Below, piece by piece: positions 1 to 9,380 of a stretch of 24,000 nt of DNA. The translations under genes were made by a program, and so were the position numbers. Under the pieces are notes generated by a model that did not search any database, had not been told where the DNA came from, and saw nothing but the letters and a program-made list of their open reading frames with translations. Each line of letters begins with the position of its first letter. The stretch's first letter is position 1. This stretch comes from Anaerovoracaceae bacterium. GTDB lineage: Bacteria; Bacillota; Clostridia; Peptostreptococcales; Anaerovoracaceae. The DNA lies in assembly GCA_045642565.1 (NCBI GenBank), contig JAZUJE010000008.1:38223-62222 (forward strand), in the 5' to 3' direction.

Positions 1-1299
1 GTGAAACAACGTATGTCTATTGTTGTGCAAATGGTTATAGCAATTTTCCATCTTGGCAATCTTATCTTGCGGTATCCCTCCTGCAAGCTCCGGCTTGAAT
101 CTGTACACTCCTGAATCAAATGTAAACATATTGAAATTATAAGATTGCATACTAATTCCACACTTTGTAAGGTTGTACTTAAGTACACCTTCTAACGCCC
201 GTAATGCAGGGAATGTAAACATAGAAAATTCAGTGTCATTTCTCGCAGGATTATTTAGATTTATTATTGCCTGTTTTAGCAAGGTTACTATATTTTGAGG
301 AAGAGCTTCTTGAGAGATAGTCGGTAATTTACTGTTGTAATCATCATCAACTCTAACTTTGTTTATTGAAATGCCATATGCGCTTTTCAAAACTTGAATA
401 AAGTCTCCACATTGAAGAGTCTCTACAACACCGGTTGTAATAATTTGAAACAGATTATTCTTTTTACCTTGGACAGTCATTTTTATATCATTAAATAACG
501 TAATTTGAGTCTTTTCTTTTCCAAATGTCAATGACCAACTTTTTTTATTTCCGGTTTTAGCCTTAGACAATTCAATTCCTTGACATTCTTCTTGAAGTTT
601 AACAAGCAGATCATCTATGTTTTTTTCATTAACAGGACTAATAATATAACCAGAATTTCCATCTAAATCACGAATTACTTTATTCTCAAATATAGCGCTT
701 TTTGCAAGTTTATCGGCCCTATCGTTGTACTTGTTGTTCGAGTGGCCACTTACTTTTACGAATTCTATAGAAATAATGCCGGATTTATCATCAATGTATC
801 TTTTGTAATAACTTGTTAATGATGTTTTTGCCTGCCATTCACCAGAAGCCCATTTTCCTATACCTTCATAATCATAAAACACTGTCATATTGTCAAAGCC
901 ATTTTTCCATGACCAATCCACTGCATTCATAACAGCTATTATTTCGCCAGCAACATTACGAAGCTCAATATATTTTTCGTTTTTTCCGATATTACATAGT
1001 TCCACATACACATCAGATGGTGCAAATAAACACACTCCAGATCCATACGCTTTTTTCCCCGCATCAAAACTACCATCCGTAAAAGCTACAACTTTACCTT
1101 TTTCAATACGAGGCAACACATCATTATTCATTACTATATCTATATCGTTTAAAAAAGCTTCTGCCTCTTCGACAGATTCAAAGCTTTTGTATATGGCTCC
1201 TGAATAACCTTCAATTGCAGTTTTGCACTCTTCCCATGATTTAAATATGCCAGTACGAAGGCCTTGCTTAACAGCATATATTTTTACTTTACTTCCCAT
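1..1299 (-). CDS. RNase H1 (hybrid-binding domain + RNase H domain) fused to an RnlA/LsoA-like repeat domain and HEPN (Rx4H) domain; C-terminus cut by window edge
   Basis: Absent from the ORF track because it runs off the window. My own minus-strand translation from ATG 1299-1297 gives 433 codons with no stop down to base 1. RBS AGAGGAG lies at 1308-1314, 8 nt upstream, inside the end of the previous gene. The N-terminus KIYAVKQGLRTGIFKSWEECKTAIEGYSGAIYKSFESVEEAEAFL is an RNase H1/viroplasmin-type hybrid-binding domain. The DEDD set is present in the usual contexts: FTDGS (D75), NVAGEIIA (E119), FYDYEG (D143), NDRADKLAK (D196). KSWSLTFGKEKTQITLFNDIKMTVQGKK resembles the RnlA/RNase HIII TBP-like repeat. 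The C-terminus FPALRALEG...NNRHTLFH carries Rx4H (R428-H433, bases 18-1). Confidence 0.8.
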   Translation of the reverse strand, partial: MGSKVKIYAVKQGLRTGIFKSWEECKTAIEGYSGAIYKSFESVEEAEAFLNDIDIVMNNDVLPRIEKGKVVAFTDGSFDAGKKAYGSGVCLFAPSDVYVELCNIGKNEKYIELRNVAGEIIAVMNAVDWSWKNGFDNMTVFYDYEGIGKWASGEWQAKTSLTSYYKRYIDDKSGIISIEFVKVSGHSNNKYNDRADKLAKSAIFENKVIRDLDGNSGYIISPVNEKNIDDLLVKLQEECQGIELSKAKTGNKKSWSLTFGKEKTQITLFNDIKMTVQGKKNNLFQIITTGVVETLQCGDFIQVLKSAYGISINKVRVDDDYNSKLPTISQEALPQNIVTLLKQAIINLNNPARNDTEFSMFTFPALRALEGVLKYNLTKCGISMQSYNFNMFTFDSGVYRFKPELAGGIPQDKIAKMENCYNHLHNNRHTLFH

Positions 1300-1301
1300 A
1301 T

Positions 1302-2456
1302 CTATTTCTCCTCTGCAATGCTTGCCTTTTTGTTAGACTTCATTTCTTCCTCAGAAAATCCATTCTCTACAATTATTCTATACGCATCAATTATTGTTCC
1401 TGCGATTTCTCCAATTCTGTTTTCGACCTGATTGATATCTGCCAAGTTAATAATAGAATCGTTTTGAGCGGGATCCGAATGAAGTTCATGACATCGAATG
1501 CTTTCCCATGTAGTAGCAAGTTTATCTGATACAAATTCATTTCGACGTACATCACGTATGTATTTTTCGAGCTTCTTTTTTCTCAATGCATTGCCTATGT
1601 CAGCAATCTCAGGATTACTCTTATATGCATCAAATGTAAAAAATTCTTTTTCAATCAATAATTTAATTACAAATCCTTCGAAAACTTTTGCAAAGGGATA
1701 TAGTATCGGATTGTAGAGTGGTATGTTTAGGTTATTTTCTTTCACCACTTTTAATATTCCTATAGCGCTAATAAGTGTATCTTGGTCATTTTTATAAAGG
1801 AACGAAAAAGCCTGCTTTGATATTCTTTCTTCGGCTAATAAACGTATTTCTTTAAACTCATCTGCTGAAGCTAACATTGCCTTTTGTACTTCATTTTTAT
1901 TCTTTTTTGGTACATAAAGCATTGAATTTTCAATATTACTAAGAGGATTAATACTTTTAATTATTCCCAACACTTCTGTGAAAAGCAAAGAGGATTGACC
2001 TTGTAGCAATAGTGTTCCAGTTTTGTATTGTGTAATAGTAAACTTTTCATTTTTGTTTTGCAGTTGTATACGATAAAACTGCGTTGAATTCGTTTCAAAT
2101 AATGAATAATCTTCAAAGTGGTTGATAATAGCATTTTTTATTTTCTCTATTTTTTCTTCGCTATCTATCTTAATTGAGGTATGTATCTGTATCGTTTTTT
2201 GAGGAATACCATGAGTTTCTTTTTCTTCACCAAAACATTCCACAAGTTTAGGAGTTTCCTTCTCGAAAACAATTTTAGATGATATTTCTCCCTTAAAATA
2301 AACAATTATTGAATATTCATCTCCACTTATCTTATAACCATATCCGTTATTAATTATTTTTTCCTGTTTAATGGGAAAAGAATTTTGTTCCAAAATATTT
2401 CTTATTTTTTGAATTGCGAATTCCTTTTGATATTTAAAATCCACACTTTGTCCCAT
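1302..2456 (-). CDS. RnlA/LsoA-family HEPN RNase toxin-like protein (NTD + repeat domain + HEPN domain)
   Basis: The ORF track gives 1302..2474 from a TTG. I prefer ATG 2456-2454 (MGQSVDF...), which has a GAGGAAG RBS at 2464-2470, 7 nt upstream. It has two TBP-like modules, including FTITQYKTGTLLLQGQ, the signature shared by RnlA/LsoA and the RNase HIII N-domain. The C-terminal helical domain has YPFAKVFEG and SIRCHELH (Rx4H; R at 1494-1496, H at 1479-1481), matching the RnlA Rx4H arrangement. Confidence 0.7.
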   Translation of the reverse strand: MGQSVDFKYQKEFAIQKIRNILEQNSFPIKQEKIINNGYGYKISGDEYSIIVYFKGEISSKIVFEKETPKLVECFGEEKETHGIPQKTIQIHTSIKIDSEEKIEKIKNAIINHFEDYSLFETNSTQFYRIQLQNKNEKFTITQYKTGTLLLQGQSSLLFTEVLGIIKSINPLSNIENSMLYVPKKNKNEVQKAMLASADEFKEIRLLAEERISKQAFSFLYKNDQDTLISAIGILKVVKENNLNIPLYNPILYPFAKVFEGFVIKLLIEKEFFTFDAYKSNPEIADIGNALRKKKLEKYIRDVRRNEFVSDKLATTWESIRCHELHSDPAQNDSIINLADINQVENRIGEIAGTIIDAYRIIVENGFSEEEMKSNKKASIAEEK

Positions 2457-2470
2457 GCCAGTACTTCCTC

Positions 2471-3367
2471 TCAATTCTCGTTATATGATCTATCAATTAG
2501 TGGCTTGGCTTTTTCAAAATCAGCCTTATTATGTATTATGACTTCAACATCACCGGTTGCCCAATGACCGATTTTAGAGGTATCTCTGGTAAAACCTTCT
2601 TCATAATCAATAGTAGTTACATCAAGCCGGAGATGCAAAAGCAACCTGTTATTGAAAACCTCTACGCAAACAAAATTCTTGATTTTCTTAAATGCCGTAT
2701 AGAGTTTCAAACTGTTTTCGCTGATGTCATCGCCAAGACTCAGAATATAATTTCGGAGATCATCATATAACGTTTTTATCTCAAGCTTTGCATTTTTGTA
2801 TTGCTCAGCAAAAGATTTATCTTTCGTCTGCTTTGCGGCAGGCACAACATCATTGTCTGGAATTGCATCTGCAATGTTTTCATTGACCTGCTCAAACATA
2901 AGCAAATCATCACCAAACTTTTTATATCTGATCAGGCTGATGTTTCGATTCATTTGCTTGATAGCAGATTCGTCATACTTTGTGAAATCGCCGGCGACAC
3001 ATACTACGCGAGGCATGGTCCAGTCAATGCTGTCAGCTTCTTTTAAACCAAGCTTTTCTATCACAAGCACCTTGAAGCTATCTTTGTGATCTAACAACCA
3101 GTTGAGATAAAAGAGACCTTGGTTAATGACATTCTCTTTCATGGAACGCTTGTACTCAAAAATGACAGGGCAATGGTTTTCATCAATACCTATGCTGTCC
3201 ATACGACCACCGTCTGTTGTTCGGTATTCCGACGCAAGAAATGTTACGCCAAAGAAAGTGGTCATGTTATTTTCAATGACAGTTTGCAGTTCTTTTTCAA
3301 GAGTTACTGTACCGCTCTGATATTCCGTAACAGTTCCTTTTATGTTGAATAATTTAATGTCAGCCAT
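2471..3367 (-). CDS. PD-(D/E)XK nuclease (NucS/DUF91-like N-terminal domain) with DUF5655-like C-terminal domain
   Basis: 298-aa ORF with RBS AAGGAAGG upstream of ATG 3367. The N-terminal core GRMDSIGIDENHCPVIFEYKR fits D...E-x-K of the restriction-endonuclease fold. The tail ...LHLRLDVTTIDYEEGFTRDTSKIGHWATGDVEVII resembles DUF5655. Family names are from memory. Confidence 0.6.
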   Translation of the reverse strand: MADIKLFNIKGTVTEYQSGTVTLEKELQTVIENNMTTFFGVTFLASEYRTTDGGRMDSIGIDENHCPVIFEYKRSMKENVINQGLFYLNWLLDHKDSFKVLVIEKLGLKEADSIDWTMPRVVCVAGDFTKYDESAIKQMNRNISLIRYKKFGDDLLMFEQVNENIADAIPDNDVVPAAKQTKDKSFAEQYKNAKLEIKTLYDDLRNYILSLGDDISENSLKLYTAFKKIKNFVCVEVFNNRLLLHLRLDVTTIDYEEGFTRDTSKIGHWATGDVEVIIHNKADFEKAKPLIDRSYNEN

Positions 3368-3382
3368 AATAAACCGCCTTCC

Positions 3383-3595
3383 TTAATTCTTCTTATCGGG
3401 TACAAAATCCATGATATCGTTTGGTTCCACCTCAAGGGCAGCACAAATCGCACCGATGACGTCGGTGGTGATATCTTTATCGTTGGCAAGCTTGTACATC
3501 TGATAGTGGGTGATGCCAGCGGCTTCTTCCAGATCCTTTTTCTTCATGTTTCTGTCAACAAGGATGTGCCACAATTTCTTATAACTAACAGCCAT
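3383..3595 (-). CDS. XRE/Cro-C1 family helix-turn-helix transcriptional regulator
   Basis: 70-aa ORF with RBS AAAGGAG upstream. KKDLEEAAGITHYQMYKLANDKDITTDVIGAICAALEVEPNDIMDF is a typical short HTH_XRE protein. It is the first gene of the four-gene operon. Confidence 0.85.
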   Translation of the reverse strand: MAVSYKKLWHILVDRNMKKKDLEEAAGITHYQMYKLANDKDITTDVIGAICAALEVEPNDIMDFVPDKKN

Positions 3596-3636
3596 TTTGA
3601 ATCTCCTTTATGAGCTATTTGGCGCTGGATACAATA

Positions 3637-3675
3637 ATACTAATATAGTATATCACAGTTCGACTGGAAAATCAA
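3637..3675 (-). promoter_or_regulatory. Sigma-A type promoter of the XRE-led operon with an overlapping palindromic operator
   Basis: On the minus strand: TTGATT (3675-3670), a 17-nt spacer, then TGaTATACT extended -10 (TATACT = 3652-3647). The palindrome ATACTA-n3-TAGTAT at 3637-3651 overlaps the -10, consistent with autoregulation. Confidence 0.45.
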
Positions 3676-3745
3676 GAATATGATAAGAATTTCAAACTTT
3701 CGACAAGAAAAATAATGATCTGTTTGAAAGAATCAGAAGAGCAAT

Positions 3746-3807
3746 TTGCCGCTATCGGCAAAAACATTCGATGTTTTTACCAACTTTTTTTCGAATTTTG
3801 CCGATAG
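3746..3807. repeat. Inverted-repeat set: palindrome TTGCCG-CTAT-CGGCAA plus a 12-bp perfect inverted repeat
   Basis: The palindrome is at 3746-3761. CTATCGGCAAAA (3752-3763) is the exact reverse complement of TTTTGCCGATAG (3796-3807), with a 32-nt spacer. The two structures are mutually exclusive. Confidence 0.5.
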
Positions 3808-3810
3808 AAC

Positions 3811-3846
3811 AGAAAAATCCGGCCCTGCCGTATGGCAGAGCCGGAT
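3811..3846 (-). terminator. Rho-independent terminator downstream of the 3888-4193 gene
   Basis: GC-rich hairpin ATCCGGCcCTGCC-GTAT-GGCAGaGCCGGAT at 3817-3846. On the minus strand it is followed by TTTTTCT (3817-3811), about 40 nt after the stop. Confidence 0.7.
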
Positions 3847-3887
3847 CGTGGTTTCAATAAGGGCTGAAAGCCCGTCATTCAAAGAAG

Positions 3888-4193
3888 TTATATCTCGTCT
3901 TTTAGGTAGTCCGCGTAGGGTGCTTTCGTGGTAACGAAGGTATCGAAAGCGAATTGTGCTCCAAGGCGGAAGCCGGTGATGAAACTGTCGAGGGTAGATT
4001 CGCCGTTGACGGATGCCCAGGCATCGACATATTGAAGGAAGCGTTTCTTTTCCTCGCCGGAGAGTTTGTCCGTGAGGAAATCTTCGCTTTCGTTCAGCGT
4101 CTGCATATCTCGCTGCACCTTTTTGTTCTGCTCGGAGCTTCGCGCCTGCGGATCGATATTGCCGTAGTAAAACTCTTCGATAAAACTATTCAT
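3888..4193 (-). CDS. Small conserved hypothetical protein (FYYGNIxP motif) of the kind carried by Clostridia integrative/conjugative elements
   Basis: 101-aa ORF with strong RBS AAGGAG 7 nt upstream and its own terminator. It sits in a locally GC-richer block. The family is recalled only loosely, so no name is assigned. Confidence 0.55.
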   Translation of the reverse strand: MNSFIEEFYYGNIDPQARSSEQNKKVQRDMQTLNESEDFLTDKLSGEEKKRFLQYVDAWASVNGESTLDSFITGFRLGAQFAFDTFVTTKAPYADYLKDEI

Positions 4194-4220
4194 GGCAGTT
4201 TCTCCTTAAATTTAGTGAGA

Positions 4221-4255
4221 AACCCGTGCGTCCATGCCTTAAAAATGTAGTATTT
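4221..4255. repeat. Copy A of a ~35-nt dispersed repeat (promoter-like region upstream of the 3888-4193 gene)
   Basis: AACCCGTGCGTCCATGCCTTAAAAATGTAGTATTT aligns with 8610-8645 at about 30 of 36 columns, in the same orientation. Confidence 0.6.
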
Positions 4256-4310
4256 TCAATAGTTTTTGTTCGCGTTCTCTCAGGTAAGTTCTACCCTTTA
4301 TGACCAATTA

Positions 4311-4375
4311 GGAAGATACAAGACGATATGGGAAGTTATAGGTCGTTATGGGAAGATACAGGAAGATAAGGGAAC
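4311..4375 (+). repeat. Iteron-like array of GGAAG(A/T)TA motifs in helical phase
   Basis: GGAAGATACA at 4311, GGAAGTTATA at 4331, GGAAGATACA at 4351, GGAAGATAAG at 4361 and GGAAC at 4371. It can also be read as about 3 copies of a degenerate 20-mer (..CGATATGGGAAGTTATAGGT / CGTTATGGGAAGATACAGGA..). Confidence 0.55.
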
Positions 4376-4522
4376 ACTTTTTGATGCAAAAGCACCGAAG
4401 TTCAAGTCCGTTATTCACGCCCGACCAGATTGCACAATGAAAAAGCTCAATAATATTGTCCAAAACGGATATAATGATAACGAAATCACGTTTTGAAATT
4501 CAACGAATGTGTTTAATAATAA

Positions 4523-4551
4523 TTAACAAATGTCTTTAAATGTGCTATCAT
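4523..4551 (+). promoter_or_regulatory. Putative sigma-A promoter for the ATPase gene
   Basis: TTAACA (4523-4528), a 17-nt spacer, then TGcTATCAT (-10 at 4546-4551). It lies 35 nt upstream of the GAGGTG RBS and ATG 4586. Confidence 0.45.
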
Positions 4552-4585
4552 ACTGTCATAGAAAAGCATAAGTAGAGGTGCTAAT

Positions 4586-5866
4586 ATGGACTATAAAAAG
4601 CGAATTGTCGATAATTTACTCGATTTGAAATTGGAATCATTTGGTGCCACCTTGATAAAAGGTCCCAAAGGATGCGGCAAAACCACATCTGCAAAGCAAA
4701 AAGCAAAAAGTTATGTGGAATTTCAAGATGAAGAAGTGCGCGATAATTTGTTGGCAGTTGCTGAAACTGCTCCCAAAAAACTTTTGATTGGTGAAAAGCC
4801 ACGCCTTTTTGACGAATGGCAGGATGCACCGAAACTTTGGGGAACAATTCGCAAGGATATTGACGACAGCGGTGAAAACGGGCAATATATTCTGACGGGT
4901 TCATCCTCCAAAGACGTCAAAGTTGCGCATACCGGAACGCTCCGTATCAGCCAGTTACAGATGTATCCAATGAGCTTATACGAAAGTGAAGAATCAAACG
5001 GTACGGTTTCCTTGCTTGATCTTTTTGATAACCCCGACTCGTTTGACGGTTGCGAATCAAACCTAACAATAGACGATTTAATTTTTGCTATTTGCAGAGG
5101 AGGATGGCCTCGTGGACTTTTGAACAAAACGCCCCGCTCCAAATTGGAAATTGCAAAAGACTTATTCAAGCAGACTTATTCAGTGGACATTTCTAACATT
5201 GACGGCAAAAAGCGCAACGCCAGATGTGCTCAAGCAATCCTGCAATCTTATAGCCGCAATATCTGCACTTTGGCAGAATCGAAAACGATCATAGGAGATG
5301 TGCAGGCAAATTATGATGTCAGTCCGGCTACCATTTATGACTATATACATGCCCTTGAAAAGTTGTATATTATCGAGGATGTAGAAGCGTGGTGTCCGGC
5401 GATTCGTTCCAAGAGCAATCTCCGTTCTTCACAAAAGAGAAATCTGATCGACCCGTCTGTTGCCGTCGCTGCGCTTGGTCTGTCTCCAGATTATTTCAAC
5501 ACCGATTTCAAGACGCTCGGCTTCTTATTTGAATCGCTTTGCATTCGGGATTTGAAAATCTATTCTTCCGCTTTTGACGGAAAAATGTCCTATTATCATG
5601 ACCGATACGGATTGGAGGCAGATGGTGTTTTGCACCTGAACGACGGCAGATATGCTCTACTTGAATTCAAACTCGGCTCCAAAGAAATTGAAATGGGTGC
5701 AAAGCATTTGTGCGATATTGAAAAACTGATCAAAGAATACAACAAAAAAGAAAACCAGTGTCCGCTTCGGATTCCGGATTTGAAAATAGTTATCACCGGC
5801 GGACAGTACGGATATAAACGCGAGGACGGAGTGTTTGTTATCCCGATCGGATGTTTGAAAAATTGA
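4586..5866 (+). CDS. AAA_14-type ATPase with C-terminal DUF4143 (PD-(D/E)XK-like) domain
   Basis: 426 aa. Walker A is GPKGCGKTT and Walker B-like is LFDEWQ, followed by YILTGSS. The C-terminal GLEADGVLHL...ALLEFKLG fits the D/E-x-K pattern typical of DUF4143. Confidence 0.85.
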   Translation: MDYKKRIVDNLLDLKLESFGATLIKGPKGCGKTTSAKQKAKSYVEFQDEEVRDNLLAVAETAPKKLLIGEKPRLFDEWQDAPKLWGTIRKDIDDSGENGQYILTGSSSKDVKVAHTGTLRISQLQMYPMSLYESEESNGTVSLLDLFDNPDSFDGCESNLTIDDLIFAICRGGWPRGLLNKTPRSKLEIAKDLFKQTYSVDISNIDGKKRNARCAQAILQSYSRNICTLAESKTIIGDVQANYDVSPATIYDYIHALEKLYIIEDVEAWCPAIRSKSNLRSSQKRNLIDPSVAVAALGLSPDYFNTDFKTLGFLFESLCIRDLKIYSSAFDGKMSYYHDRYGLEADGVLHLNDGRYALLEFKLGSKEIEMGAKHLCDIEKLIKEYNKKENQCPLRIPDLKIVITGGQYGYKREDGVFVIPIGCLKN

Positions 5867-6003
5867 AAACTGCTTGATTCGGTCATGGCAAACTCTGCTT
5901 ATTATGAATTACTTTTTTCTGTGCACCACTTGAGCCCCAACGTTTCTCGACAATAGTTAAAATTACAAAAATATAGCAATCACAATCAATAGGAGCAATT
6001 AAA

Positions 6004-7695
6004 ATGTTAGATGCAAAAAGACTTTTGGAATTCGAATATTTTCCGAGCGAATTACCCGAGTGCTTTACTTCAAAAGGATTAGCACAACATTATTCGGAAA
6101 TAAAAGGCCAAATTAATTCTCATTCATTTCCTTCATCACTTCCCTTGGAGTTTTCAATTTACAAAGGGGAAAACTCACGGCGAAGAATGGCGTTGCCGAA
6201 TCCAATTCATTATTTCAAAATTGTAGATTTGTTGGTCGAAAACGAAAGGGACTTATTTGATCTCTTTGAAAAAAGTGATTATTCGCTAACAAAGCCTTCG
6301 ACCGATCAAAGCGATACACAAAAAAGAGCATATAATAGGGTGTCAAACAATCCTATGCAAACAAGACTTATCAATGAGAAAAATTTTTGCGATAATACCA
6401 TTTGTATAAAATTAGATATAAGTAATTTTTTTGATAGCATTTATACTCATTCGATTTCATGGGCCATACATACAAAAAATGTGGCTAAACAAAAAACAGG
6501 CGATAAAACGCTTTTGGGCAACAAGATTGATAAAGCGTTACAAGAACTTAATTACGACCAAACACATGGGATATTGGTCGGCAATGCAGTTTCAAGAATC
6601 ATTTCTGAAATAATACTTTGTAAAATTGATGCTGAAATAAAAGTAGCATTTCCTAATATAAAAATGTGTCGTTTTGTTGACGATTATTCTTTTTACATCA
6701 AAGAAAATGAGTCGCCAAACGCCATTATTTCTTTTGTTCGCAATCGTTTGTTAGAATATGATTTGGTACTAAATGAAGCAAAAACAAAATTATATAACGC
6801 TCCATTTGTTTTAGAGCGAAGTGGAATAGATGAAATTAAAGCGATAAATACACATGATGCCTATACCTACTATAACAGACTTATAATCATGTTTGACAAA
6901 TACAAAGATTTATCCTTGTTAAAATATGGATTGTCAATATTATCACCAATCATAAATGATAGAAGCTTTCACACGGTATTTCCGCTTTTAAATAATTTAT
7001 GGGTTACATATCCTTCCTTAGCCGAAAAAATCTTGCCGATTTTTTATTCAAAAAAAGATTTGTTTGATTCAAAAGAAAAAAATGTTTTTAAAACATCATT
7101 ATGCTCAATAATTAATTTAGGCATTCAATACCGTCAAGAAGCAGAAACCATTTGGGCAGTTTGGGGAATGACTCTGTTTGATTTTAATTTTAATCAGAGA
7201 TTATTTGAAAACTTATGCACATCCAATAATGACTTGGCAATAATTATTGCAGCAGTTTATATGAAAAAATATGGTTATAAGTATTATGATGAAGTTATAA
7301 ATGAATTGGTCAAACGAATTACAGACGAATCGATCGATTCTTCCCCCAAAAACAGAAAAGATATATATTTTCCACATTGGTTGTTGATATATGAGCTTAC
7401 CAAGAAAAACATAGTCTGCAACACAACCTTTCAAAGTGTCAAAACTGATCCATTTTTCAAAAAAATATATGATTTAGATGTAGATTTCTATGATTGCAAT
7501 ATAGTACCGAATGCCAATGAGAAGGTTAAAGTAAAAGCAAAAATGAGCGAAATGGACAAGCAGAATTTGTCTGTATTGCTCGAGATGATTGTACCGGAAA
7601 AAATGTCAAATAACGAAAAAATAAAAGAAATAGTTGAGAGAATTAACAGCATTGTTTTTGATAGCGACGAAAATTGGGTTTATGATATACCGTAA
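6004..7695 (+). CDS. Abi/UG-type (defence-associated, non-retron, non-intron) reverse transcriptase with long helical C-terminal domain
   Basis: 563 aa with RBS AGGAG. RT motifs: RRRMALPNPIHY; IKLDISNFFDSIYTHSISWA (motif A, D138); HGILVGNAVSRIISEI (motif B); RFVDDYSF (motif C, DD at 6679-6684); LVLNEAKTKL (motif D/E). About 280 aa of helical tail follows, as in the AbiA/AbiK/UG classes. The subclass cannot be assigned by eye. Confidence 0.85.
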   Translation: MLDAKRLLEFEYFPSELPECFTSKGLAQHYSEIKGQINSHSFPSSLPLEFSIYKGENSRRRMALPNPIHYFKIVDLLVENERDLFDLFEKSDYSLTKPSTDQSDTQKRAYNRVSNNPMQTRLINEKNFCDNTICIKLDISNFFDSIYTHSISWAIHTKNVAKQKTGDKTLLGNKIDKALQELNYDQTHGILVGNAVSRIISEIILCKIDAEIKVAFPNIKMCRFVDDYSFYIKENESPNAIISFVRNRLLEYDLVLNEAKTKLYNAPFVLERSGIDEIKAINTHDAYTYYNRLIIMFDKYKDLSLLKYGLSILSPIINDRSFHTVFPLLNNLWVTYPSLAEKILPIFYSKKDLFDSKEKNVFKTSLCSIINLGIQYRQEAETIWAVWGMTLFDFNFNQRLFENLCTSNNDLAIIIAAVYMKKYGYKYYDEVINELVKRITDESIDSSPKNRKDIYFPHWLLIYELTKKNIVCNTTFQSVKTDPFFKKIYDLDVDFYDCNIVPNANEKVKVKAKMSEMDKQNLSVLLEMIVPEKMSNNEKIKEIVERINSIVFDSDENWVYDIP

Positions 7696-7869
7696 AGAAT
7701 CTTGATGTTGTCTGGCAAAACAATGACCTTGAGCACATTCAAAATTAAAAAGGCCAAACTTTCAATTAGAATACTGTTAATCAGCTCAGAAGTTGATTGA
7801 AGTTCAGAAATACTCTGAAGCAAAACGCCAATATATAAGGATTACAAAAATATGTAAGGCAGCAAAAAT

Positions 7870-8514
7870 ATGTTAAACAAATATTTTAGAATGGATGGAA
7901 ATAATAGTCTTGATTTTATGTATGCAAACATTGCAGTAAAAAATATATATTTTGCGTTAATCTCATTGGACTATATCTTTGATTCCGACAAGTATAATAT
8001 TGGTGTCTACCATGATGAACACACATATTACTTTTTCCACATTCAAAGTTTGCTAACTGCTTGCGGAAATATAGCTAATGTTTTTTATAATCTGGGTGTT
8101 CATAATGGACGTCGATCAACCGAACGTTGCCGAAGACTGCGTAATACATTCAATATAAGCAAGGGCATGTATCAACTTGTTTTTCAAAAAGAAGCACGCA
8201 ATACGAACGAGCACTTTGACGAACGTTATGAAGAATTCGGCGGAAATTTGGGAGACTATAATTTGTTAGACCATGATACAGATGCATATATGAGAGCTGT
8301 AATACAAACCAATCCTCATTTAAGAACATATGACATAGAGAATCATATATATCATACATTCATTCGCAGATCGGGAAGATTTGAACGATTTGAGTACAAC
8401 TTAATAGAATTACGACGAGAATTAGAGCGAATGCGTGATAGCATAATCGATAATCCAGTTTTTTCTTCTGCTTGGGTAGAAGAAATGCCAATAGAACAAG
8501 TCGAGAGACATTAA
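7870..8514 (+). CDS. Small HEPN-like (Rx4H) protein, putative RNase effector partner of the RT
   Basis: 214-aa helical-looking protein. It has a single EARNTNEHFDER motif (R110 at 8197-8199, H115 at 8212-8214) with the polar Asn after Arg that is common in Abi-type HEPN domains. It is on the same strand as the RT and 174 nt downstream. The call rests on one motif plus context. Confidence 0.5.
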   Translation: MLNKYFRMDGNNSLDFMYANIAVKNIYFALISLDYIFDSDKYNIGVYHDEHTYYFFHIQSLLTACGNIANVFYNLGVHNGRRSTERCRRLRNTFNISKGMYQLVFQKEARNTNEHFDERYEEFGGNLGDYNLLDHDTDAYMRAVIQTNPHLRTYDIENHIYHTFIRRSGRFERFEYNLIELRRELERMRDSIIDNPVFSSAWVEEMPIEQVERH

Positions 8515-8544: not shown

Positions 8545-8590
8545 GATCCGACTCTGCAGTACAATATGGCAAAGCCGGATTTTATTTTTT
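8545..8590 (+). terminator. Weak candidate terminator after the HEPN-like gene
   Basis: ATCCGaC...GcCGGAT imperfect stem with a ~21-nt loop, followed by TTTTATTTTTTT (8580-8590). Confidence 0.3.
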
Positions 8591-8609
8591 TGTTCAATTC
8601 CCAGCATTC

Positions 8610-8645
8610 AACCCGTGCGTTCGCTGTCTTGAAAATGTAGTGTTT
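8610..8645. repeat. Copy B of the ~35-nt dispersed repeat (orphan, no gene downstream on the minus strand)
   Basis: AACCCGTGCGTTCGCTGTCTTGAAAATGTAGTGTTT, paired with 4221-4255. Confidence 0.6.
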
Positions 8646-8763: not shown

Positions 8764-8791
8764 TTTTTGGACAACTTTTGGACAACTTTTT
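8764..8791 (+). repeat. 28-nt direct repeat, left copy (tandem TTTTGGACAAC x2)
   Basis: TTTTTGGACAACTTTTGGACAACTTTTT is identical at 26 of 28 positions to 12325-12352. Confidence 0.75.
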
Positions 8792-8798
8792 ATGTAGT

Positions 8799-8832
8799 AA
8801 ACAGCTTCAGAAATGAAGCTGTTTGCTTTTTT
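8799..8832 (+). terminator. Rho-independent terminator
   Basis: Perfect 11-bp stem AAACAGCTTCA-GAAA-TGAAGCTGTTT (8799-8824) followed by GCTTTTTT. It lies 285 nt after the nearest upstream plus-strand gene. Confidence 0.7.
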
Positions 8833-8873: not shown

Positions 8874-8921
8874 TTGACAACGCGAACACATTTATGGGAT
8901 AATATTACTAATAGTATTAGT
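8874..8921 (+). promoter_or_regulatory. Sigma-A promoter of the MarR cassette with a downstream palindromic operator
   Basis: TTGACA (8874-8879), an 18-nt spacer, then TGgGATAAT (-10 at 8898-8903). The perfect 7-1-7 palindrome ACTAATAgTATTAGT at 8907-8921 is typical MarR-box geometry. Confidence 0.55.
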
Positions 8922-8939: not shown

Positions 8940-9380
8940 ATGGAATCAGAATCACAAATTACTCAATCATTTATTGATATGAGATCAAGCCAAGAGTATA
9001 GAGATTATTTAAGAGCTTTTGCACAAAAATCTTTTAACATAACTCAAATACTTACATATATTCATGGGCATGGTGGTAACGTGCATCCAAATAGAATAGC
9101 AGAAGATTTATCAATTACCACAGCCCAAATGGCTGTGTTGTTAAACCATCTTGAGAAATGTGGATATATAGAACGCATGCCAGATAAAGACGATCATAGA
9201 AAAACAAATGTTAGACTAACTGAAGCTGGAAAAAACTATCGTAAAGAGCTGAGTAAGAAGTATCATTCGTTTATTAATGAAATATTTATACGCATGGGGA
9301 AACGGGATTCTGAACGATTTGTCGAACTATTTTCTGAGTTTGTAAAAACCGGCGCGCAGATTTATTCAGAAAGGTCATAA
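8940..9380 (+). CDS. MarR family winged-helix transcriptional regulator
   Basis: 146 aa. IAEDLSITTAQMAVLLNHLEKCGYIERMPDKDDHRKTNVRLTEAGKNY is the canonical MarR HTH plus wing (DxR..). The stop is 1 nt from the next ATG. Confidence 0.85.
   Translation: MESESQITQSFIDMRSSQEYRDYLRAFAQKSFNITQILTYIHGHGGNVHPNRIAEDLSITTAQMAVLLNHLEKCGYIERMPDKDDHRKTNVRLTEAGKNYRKELSKKYHSFINEIFIRMGKRDSERFVELFSEFVKTGAQIYSERS

Follow-up and report, generated by a model that had tools for sequence, protein, structure and literature searches.

A DRT6-type reverse transcriptase and an adjacent gene of an unannotated family with a HEPN-type motif in a gut Clostridia defense island

A 24,000-nucleotide stretch of DNA from an Anaerovoracaceae bacterium (assembly GCA_045642565.1, contig JAZUJE010000008.1, positions 38,223 to 62,222; the whole of this stretch is hereafter the window) raises the question of whether two genes that follow one another on the same strand function as one defense system or as two. 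The first of these (6004..7695, + strand) starts with ATG, has its own ribosome-binding site (AGGAG, 8 nt upstream) and encodes a reverse transcriptase (RT) of 563 residues. The second, open reading frame 2 (ORF2; 7870..8514, + strand), also has an ATG start and its own ribosome-binding site, encodes 214 residues and is separated from the co-directional RT gene by 174 nt. An earlier, sequence-only reading of this DNA had taken the pair for a candidate two-gene system of an RT and a HEPN ribonuclease (RNase), perhaps a split or variant AbiA-like arrangement, and could not match its architecture to any named defense RT (DRT) type. Both open reading frames lie where that reading placed them and all of the motifs it cited are real. 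The RT, however, is a new and divergent gut-Clostridia member of a known single-gene defense class, ORF2 belongs to an unannotated family and is probably a stand-alone HEPN-like effector, and in our judgment it is likely that the two are adjacent, independent genes of a defense island.

The reverse transcriptase and its class

The 563-residue protein is a class 1 UG/Abi RT (Abi, abortive infection), complete and of the DRT6/UG12 type, and is not AbiA-like, as follows from its rankings in searches of PADLOC profiles, PDB sequences and, by Foldseek, PDB structures. Class 1 of the UG/Abi RTs is defined by a fused alphaRep domain (Mestre et al., 2022, PMC9226505). The best PADLOC match among 52 families was Drt6 (PDLC03748, 359.6 bits, 7.6e-108), with RT residues 3-515 aligned to profile positions 3-496 of 511, followed by Drt4 (334.5 bits, 2.9e-100) and then by RT_UG30, AbiK (2e-50) and Abi-P2; AbiA was absent from the best 25 matches, and none of UG22, UG19, and AbiA was among the top ones. 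NCBIfam has no Drt6 model, and against its Drt4 equivalog (NF041749) the RT scored 209.1 bits, which does not reach the cut-off of 450 bits. Pfam recognized the RVT_1 core only (residues 127-264, 4.3e-14). When PDB sequences were searched, entry 9wy8 was the top match (1.4e-33, aligned across residues 4-499), and AbiK, Drt3b, and UG15 came after it.

A structure predicted with AlphaFold2 (AF2) from an alignment of 37 relatives (pLDDT 87, pTM 0.84) gave the same order. Foldseek against the PDB placed 9wy8, the “hexameric DRT6” solved by cryo-electron microscopy, first (E 3.9e-24, TM 0.78/0.88, root-mean-square deviation 3.2 Å over 517 columns), with UG15/DRT4 (E ~1e-22, TM 0.71-0.82), AbiK and Abi-P2 behind it, whereas AbiA (8oz7) was far behind (E 2e-7, TM 0.42-0.47). 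The idea of a split AbiA was therefore rejected, and the RT falls into a characterized single-gene class, DRT6/UG12, with DRT4/UG15 next. In the model, residues 1-280 (6004..6843, + strand) form a fingers/palm domain of mixed alpha/beta structure and residues 286-490 (6859..7473, + strand) form the C-terminal alphaRep domain, a series of consecutive helices, mostly with pLDDT >90, that aligns with the DRT6, DRT4 and AbiK structures. Two more helices at 516-553 lie beyond it, and confidence is low after residue 554. The catalytic site F224-V225-D226-D227 (6673..6684, + strand) stands within RFVDDYSF (residues 223-230), of which V225, D226, D227 and Y228 are invariant in all 37 aligned relatives; at position 224, 30 of them have F and seven have Y. 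The sequence-only reading had thus been largely correct in describing an Abi/UG-type defense RT with an FVDD site and a helical C-terminal extension (helices 286-490 and 516-553).

The window RT resembles DRT6 in its fingers/palm and C-terminal alphaRep domains over the full length, in its (Y/F)VDD site and in being a single gene with variable neighbors and a defense-island location, and DRT6 is its best PADLOC and structural match. It differs in having FVDD rather than YVDD, an extra C-terminal tail of ~60 residues and a gut-Clostridia lineage, and it is ~24% identical to the solved DRT6. DRT4 (UG15) has the same architecture and is a close second in sequence and structure; the window RT is distinguished from it by a score far under the NCBIfam Drt4 cut-off and by a tyrosine, Y110, that is not universal among its relatives. 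This residue is a candidate for the priming tyrosine. It lies ~116 residues before the catalytic DD, compared with the 115-residue spacing of Tyr125, the absolutely conserved priming tyrosine in the palm of DRT4, and is Y in 33/37 and F in 4/37 RT relatives; its equivalence to Tyr125 is drawn from spacing and not from an alignment, and the assignment is uncertain.

The mechanism of DRT6 and DRT4 has recently been worked out. UG12 (DRT6) protects Escherichia coli as a single gene and requires its catalytic site to do so (PMC9226505), and DRT4 and DRT6 need neither a partner protein nor RNA (PMC12783706). Both form hexamers, are active against phages and synthesize protein-primed, template-independent single-stranded DNA (ssDNA), which host exonucleases such as ExoI/SbcB normally degrade, and the T5 DNA-binding protein ORF55 triggers their toxicity, probably by protecting the ssDNA, the mechanism and trigger being the same for DRT4 as for DRT6 (PMC12783706). 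By homology, the window RT most likely works in this way. The enzyme would most likely be hexameric and would constitutively make protein-primed, template-independent ssDNA that host 3′-5′ exonucleases hold in check; during infection a phage ssDNA-binding protein would shield this DNA, which would then accumulate and kill or arrest the cell (abortive infection), and neither a partner protein nor a non-coding RNA (ncRNA) would be called for. Consistent with the sequence-only reading, the gene has no intron, retron or CRISPR context: an Rfam search of the window found no group II intron, retron RNA or other Rfam family, and searches of the window for CRISPR-like arrays and for tRNAs were both negative.

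Occurrence of the RT and ORF2 together and apart

Reciprocal neighborhood surveys led us to reject an obligate two-gene system. The ORF2-seeded survey comprised 34 loci (~28 of them independent, each with a 6-7 kb flank) and was later enlarged to 41; tblastn detected no RT relative in any of the 34, and the RT-family hidden Markov model (HMM) had no match in any of the 41. Conversely, an ORF2 relative was present in one of 64 RT-seeded loci, and the proposal of an RT plus HEPN system is thus unsupported from both sides. Of the ORF2 relatives outside the window's own cluster, the closest (L047/L048, 83% identical) lies 10 nt after a gene that does not encode an RT. We considered whether an RT might have been inserted, in the window, between orthologs of a DUF4143 ATPase gene and ORF2, and discarded this idea because the protein encoded upstream of ORF2 in L047 is unrelated to the window's upstream ATPase. 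Two genes upstream of other ORF2 relatives, of 494 aa (L001) and 563 aa (L043), were examined as cryptic RTs and dismissed: neither had a PADLOC hit, the RT-family HMM found nothing in either, and a BLASTP comparison of the window RT with the L001 protein was nonsignificant. The longer ORF2-family proteins P0293, P0296, P0354, and P0328 were likewise dismissed as RT-ORF2 fusions, none being similar to the RT family.

More than 30 unrelated clusters occupy the position after the RT gene (~48 loci, from a survey of 56 metagenome loci plus earlier ones). For RT relatives at 56-60% identity, the next gene is an opposite-strand PDC-M63B-like gene or a PDC-S32/AbiJ-like gene, or there is nothing. 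The RT genes of the L056 group are 93-96% identical at the nucleotide level, yet similarity to L056 ends ~20-30 nt past the RT stop codon. As an observation in its own right, PDC-S32 (AbiJ_NTD4 plus Abi_C, HEPN-type) lies directly downstream of a 57%-identical RT relative with a 30-nt gap (L039, 6705-7565) and directly upstream of a 60%-identical one (L042, 1-708), and is thus a second recurrent HEPN-type neighbor of RT relatives, in variable order.

Conservation of the pair across genomes, which the sequence-only reading had proposed to survey, is confined to the window's own shallow clade and to one further locus. In the clade (L035, L036, and L046) the RT is 86% identical and ORF2 80-81% identical to those of the window (~85%/82% nucleotide identity for the pair), and the similarity between the window and L035 consists of two separate blocks, 5989-7739 and 7796-8512. 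The gene upstream of the RT is PDC-S01 in the window and GajB in L035. The latter locus carries a complete Gabija system (1222-4942; GajA 3e-212, GajB 9e-197), with an Eco57I-like methyltransferase gene before it, directly upstream of the RT-ORF2 pair, the RT start codon being 58 nt after the GajB stop. In a small ORF2 tree the RT-linked copies group together with the RT-less L047 copy as the nearest outgroup, which fits a single juxtaposition event. The further locus, L056, represents an independent second juxtaposition, in which an RT 38% identical to that of the window is followed on the same strand, after a 115-nt gap, by an ORF2-superfamily gene 27% identical to ORF2.

The spacer between the two genes (7696..7869, + strand) is not conserved: its 174 nt in the window compare with 309 nt in L035 and L046 (an indel of ~135 nt), and identity is poor. 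It contains a weak promoter-like site (7745-7772), no terminator-like site, and no fold beyond that of shuffled controls (z -0.01). An ncRNA partner encoded between the RT and ORF2 was considered and rejected, as Rfam gave no match and the spacer contains no structured element. After ORF2 is a probable weak intrinsic terminator (8545..8595, + strand), an imperfect hairpin (-13.5 kcal/mol, z -2.0) followed by the U-run UUUUAUUUUUUU; this hairpin is one arm of a 35-nt inverted repeat whose other arm is at 3814-3848. The G+C content is 0.30-0.33 over both the RT gene and ORF2, compared with 0.41 upstream.

Independent function of the RT and ORF2 is in our view the better explanation, because of the overwhelming lack of co-occurrence and the demonstrated self-sufficiency of DRT6 and DRT4. 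A number of points weigh against it. The RT-ORF2 adjacency has outlasted a nucleotide divergence of ~15% and the replacement of its upstream neighbor, whereas another RT clade turns over its downstream slot within 4-7% divergence, and L056 provides a second, independent adjacency of an RT with an ORF2 relative. No terminator is predicted in the spacer, so that the genes may be co-transcribed; ORF2 is succeeded by a hairpin with a U-run, and low G+C is common to both genes. Further, the RT is just 24% identical to the solved DRT6, so that its mechanism is extrapolated, and the HEPN assignment of ORF2 comes from its motif and helix context, profile and fold searches having given no confirmation.

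Several of these points would be accommodated by a facultative module, in which an ORF2-family HEPN-like protein was recruited in the window clade and, independently, in L056 to serve a DRT6-like RT as accessory effector or sensor; it could, for instance, be an RNase that the ssDNA product of the RT activates. Such a module would explain why the pair is co-directional in the window, L035, L036, and L046 despite different upstream genes, as well as the L056 adjacency, the hairpin and U-run after ORF2 but no terminator before it, and the common low G+C. It would also have precedents in UG22 with its HEPN-like neighbor, in the AbiA-HEPN fusion and in type IX retrons (PMC9226505), and in UG7, where just 150 of 385 members have a nuclease gene (PMC9226505). 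The likeness to AbiA, UG22 and type IX retrons lies in the idea of an RT beside a HEPN-type RNase and in the conserved Rx4H of ORF2; however, these systems, like DRT8 and similar multi-gene RT defense systems, are defined by a conserved pairing, whereas the RT-ORF2 pairing is not conserved and ORF2 matches no HEPN profile, and AbiA is moreover structurally distant from the window RT, which keeps its own complete alphaRep domain. With the RT in none of 41 ORF2-seeded loci, ORF2 missing from 63 of 64 RT-seeded loci, an 83%-identical ORF2 relative that has no RT, a spacer unconserved and variable in length, and DRT6 and DRT4 experimentally able to work as single genes (PMC12783706), we judge a facultative module to be quite unlikely. 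The two recurrences of the RT-ORF2 pair are also no more than the recurrences of ORF2 beside PDC-S07 (five loci) or PDC-S04/SoFic (three loci), and are thus explicable as ordinary defense-island clustering. We give very little credence to a more far-reaching proposal, that the ORF2 family is a new HEPN-like RNase captured at least twice, independently, by DRT6-like RTs (in the window clade and in L056) as a downstream effector that reads their protein-primed ssDNA; if true, the two would be a facultative RT-to-RNase signaling pair of which each part is also able to work alone.

We therefore retain the reading of two independent genes. The sequence-only reading had itself named an RT of a known single-gene class and an ORF2 that does not co-occur with RT homologs as findings that would speak against a joint system, and these are, in large part, the findings obtained.

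The ORF2 family

At E <= 1e-3, the ORF2 family consists of 165 homologous clusters, all unnamed, and an exhaustive profile search produced 285 representatives of clusters formed at 50% identity. Members are ~200-215 aa long and nearly all come from metagenome-assembled genomes of gut or rumen Clostridia. That phages or plasmids carry ORF2 was considered and rejected, as no homologs were found in the INPHARED, PLSDB or IMG/VR collections. ORF2 relatives are scattered in defense islands and mobile elements of gut Clostridia with no constant partner, their neighbors including PDC-S07, PDC-S04/SoFic, HerA, AbiO, Nhi, type I restriction-modification, Gabija, SMODS, and integrases. A constant partner other than the RT was sought and none was found, as neighbor clusters had at most three members, mostly from closely related genomes. 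In one locus (L031) an ORF2 relative (~44% identical; 6956-7531) lies ~40 nt downstream of a SMODS plus AGS_C nucleotide cyclase (5441-6916), a layout that resembles a CBASS cyclase with its effector. A different genome (L012) has two ORF2-family paralogs tail to tail, at 7001-7627 (+) and 7702-8367 (-), and in L013, L020 and L027 the ORF2 copies are fragmented (pseudogenes).

The putative active-site motif of ORF2, K107-x2-R110-N-T-N-E-H115-F-D-E-R119 (8188..8226, + strand; residues 108-119 are EARNTNEHFDER), is conserved in relatives. K107, R110, N111, T112, H115, and F116-R119 do not vary among 39 close relatives, and across 52 relatives at 17-48% identity H115 is the sole invariant column, with R110 and N111 conserved in at least 90%. 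A lone Rx4H in one 214-residue sequence would arise by chance ~0.2 times per protein, by a rough estimate; despite this ease of chance occurrence, its conservation across relatives indicates that the motif is under selection, and the invariance of H115 together with the conservation of R110 and N111 makes R-N-x3-H the signature of the family. HEPN domains, four-helix up-down bundles with the motif closing helix 3, have an Rx4-6H motif with a polar residue directly after the arginine, located at the end of a helix (PMC3710099). ORF2 satisfies this motif definition (R110-N111-T-N-E-H115, with the polar N after R), and in its AF2 model (pLDDT 85, pTM 0.83) the motif is at the end of helix 107-114. 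Long helices span residues 12-37 and 50-73 of the model and a shorter one spans 80-94; the motif helix lies within 107-122, and beyond it are a four-stranded sheet at 130-177 and a helix at 178-193. The motif and its helix-end position are compatible with a HEPN-type active site, and R-N-x3-H is most likely, judging from conservation and the predicted structure, a HEPN-type, metal-independent RNase site.

The HEPN-type motif that the sequence-only reading had noted therefore stands as a genuinely conserved Rx4H in a compatible position, whereas a HEPN fold or profile could not be demonstrated. ORF2 had no match in Pfam, PADLOC, NCBIfam or PHROGs; the HEPN families of Pfam gave nothing at E <= 10 for 39 members and nothing at E <= 1 for 52; profile searches of PDB sequences with the ORF2 family found nothing; and Foldseek of the model against the PDB gave nothing significant, HEPN toxins appearing at E 3-4 only. 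The only significant structural match of ORF2 was in BFVD, to A0A514A2X7 of Gordonia phage Madeline (E 1.7e-4, TM 0.61/0.69, 15% identity), an uncharacterized actinophage protein, and the ORF2 fold therefore occurs in phages too. These negative searches, and the fact that the sole structural match is to an uncharacterized phage protein, would agree with an ORF2 that is neither a HEPN RNase nor a defense effector and is instead, for example, a regulator or an accessory protein of mobile elements or prophages, with R, N, and H serving some other role and its presence in islands being due to hitch-hiking on mobile DNA. Integrases and relaxases are indeed frequent near ORF2 relatives, and it is uncommon for a HEPN protein to have a beta-sheet inserted between its motif helix and its final helix. 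We consider this alternative unlikely.

Our preferred reading remains that ORF2 is a stand-alone HEPN-like protein, and by analogy it probably works like the stand-alone HEPN abortive-infection proteins (ApeA, AbiJ/PDC-S32, AbiU2 and AbiV-type). These are also single defense-island genes with no constant partner, and share with ORF2 the conserved R-polar-x3-H and a helical core. They differ from it in that neither sequence searches nor Foldseek detected a similarity of ORF2 to any of them, and in that the motif helix of ORF2 is separated from its C-terminal helix by a four-stranded beta insert, which may be a regulatory or sensor module. ORF2 would then probably act alone as a toxin-like abortive-infection effector, for which we infer both enzymatic activity and a defense role.

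The surrounding island and the significance of the two genes

The region from ~2.4 to 8.6 kb of the window is a defense island. It includes a candidate defense gene of the PDC-S18 family (2471-3367, - strand; PADLOC PDC-S18 1.5e-131, Pfam DUF5655), which is island context, and an AAA_14 plus DUF4143 ATPase gene of the PDC-S01 family (4586-5866, + strand; PADLOC PDC-S01 9.8e-47, Pfam AAA_14 and DUF4143), which is likewise context and outside the RT unit. PADLOC classes both of these genes, which flank the RT and ORF2, as single-gene “phage defence candidates.” A gene of 390 aa (1302-2474, - strand) that matches no family shares 4 nt with the end of the PDC-S18 gene. The genes that start with a MarR gene at 8940 have the look of ordinary chromosome, with DUF1538, a P-II-like protein, a PL8 lyase, SstT, and a large surface protein.

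The small gene between the two candidate defense genes (3888-4193, - strand) is a member of DUF6809 (PF20648, 1.8e-22). DUF6809 genes recur at the edges of variable islands that hold RT or ORF2 relatives, sometimes in two or three copies per locus (L037: 535-705, 4504-4782, and 8711-9070; L040: 4513-4788 and 9929-10204; L002: 11075-11359), flanking RT relatives in L037/L038 and L040/L041 and lying near an ORF2 relative in L002/L004; this recurrence may point to a hotspot for defense cassettes in these Clostridia, or to a mobile scaffold that bears them.

Several repeats are associated with the island. The arms of the 35-nt inverted repeat (3814-3848 with 8549-8583, 71% complementary) bracket the block of DUF6809, PDC-S01, RT and ORF2 genes, and the first arm, judged by eye, resembles a minus-strand terminator hairpin; the repeat could be a recombination scar or merely a pair of similar terminators. 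Just inside or outside these arms there is also a 21-nt direct repeat (86%), at 4235-4255 and 8625-8645. Between the DUF6809 and PDC-S01 genes, a 20-nt unit, GGAAGATACAGGACGATATG, is present in three tandem copies (4309-4374, 75% matches) that may be an operator or an iteron-like element. Downstream of ORF2, at 8765-8827, a perfect 11-nt tandem repeat, TTTTGGACAAC, in 2.4 copies immediately precedes a strong intrinsic terminator (stem of 14 bp, -20.3 kcal/mol, z -5.2), and downstream of both is a near-consensus promoter for the MarR operon (8874-8903).

This locus illustrates how easily two co-directional genes of a defense island can pass for a system encoded by an operon. With the RT, a divergent gut-Clostridia branch is added to a defense family whose mechanism was recently solved, which is useful for mapping the diversity of that family and is unsurprising. 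The more useful by-product is the 214-residue family of ORF2, which is conserved, unannotated, and found beside many different defense systems, and which can reasonably be considered a candidate new effector of abortive infection that stands alone.

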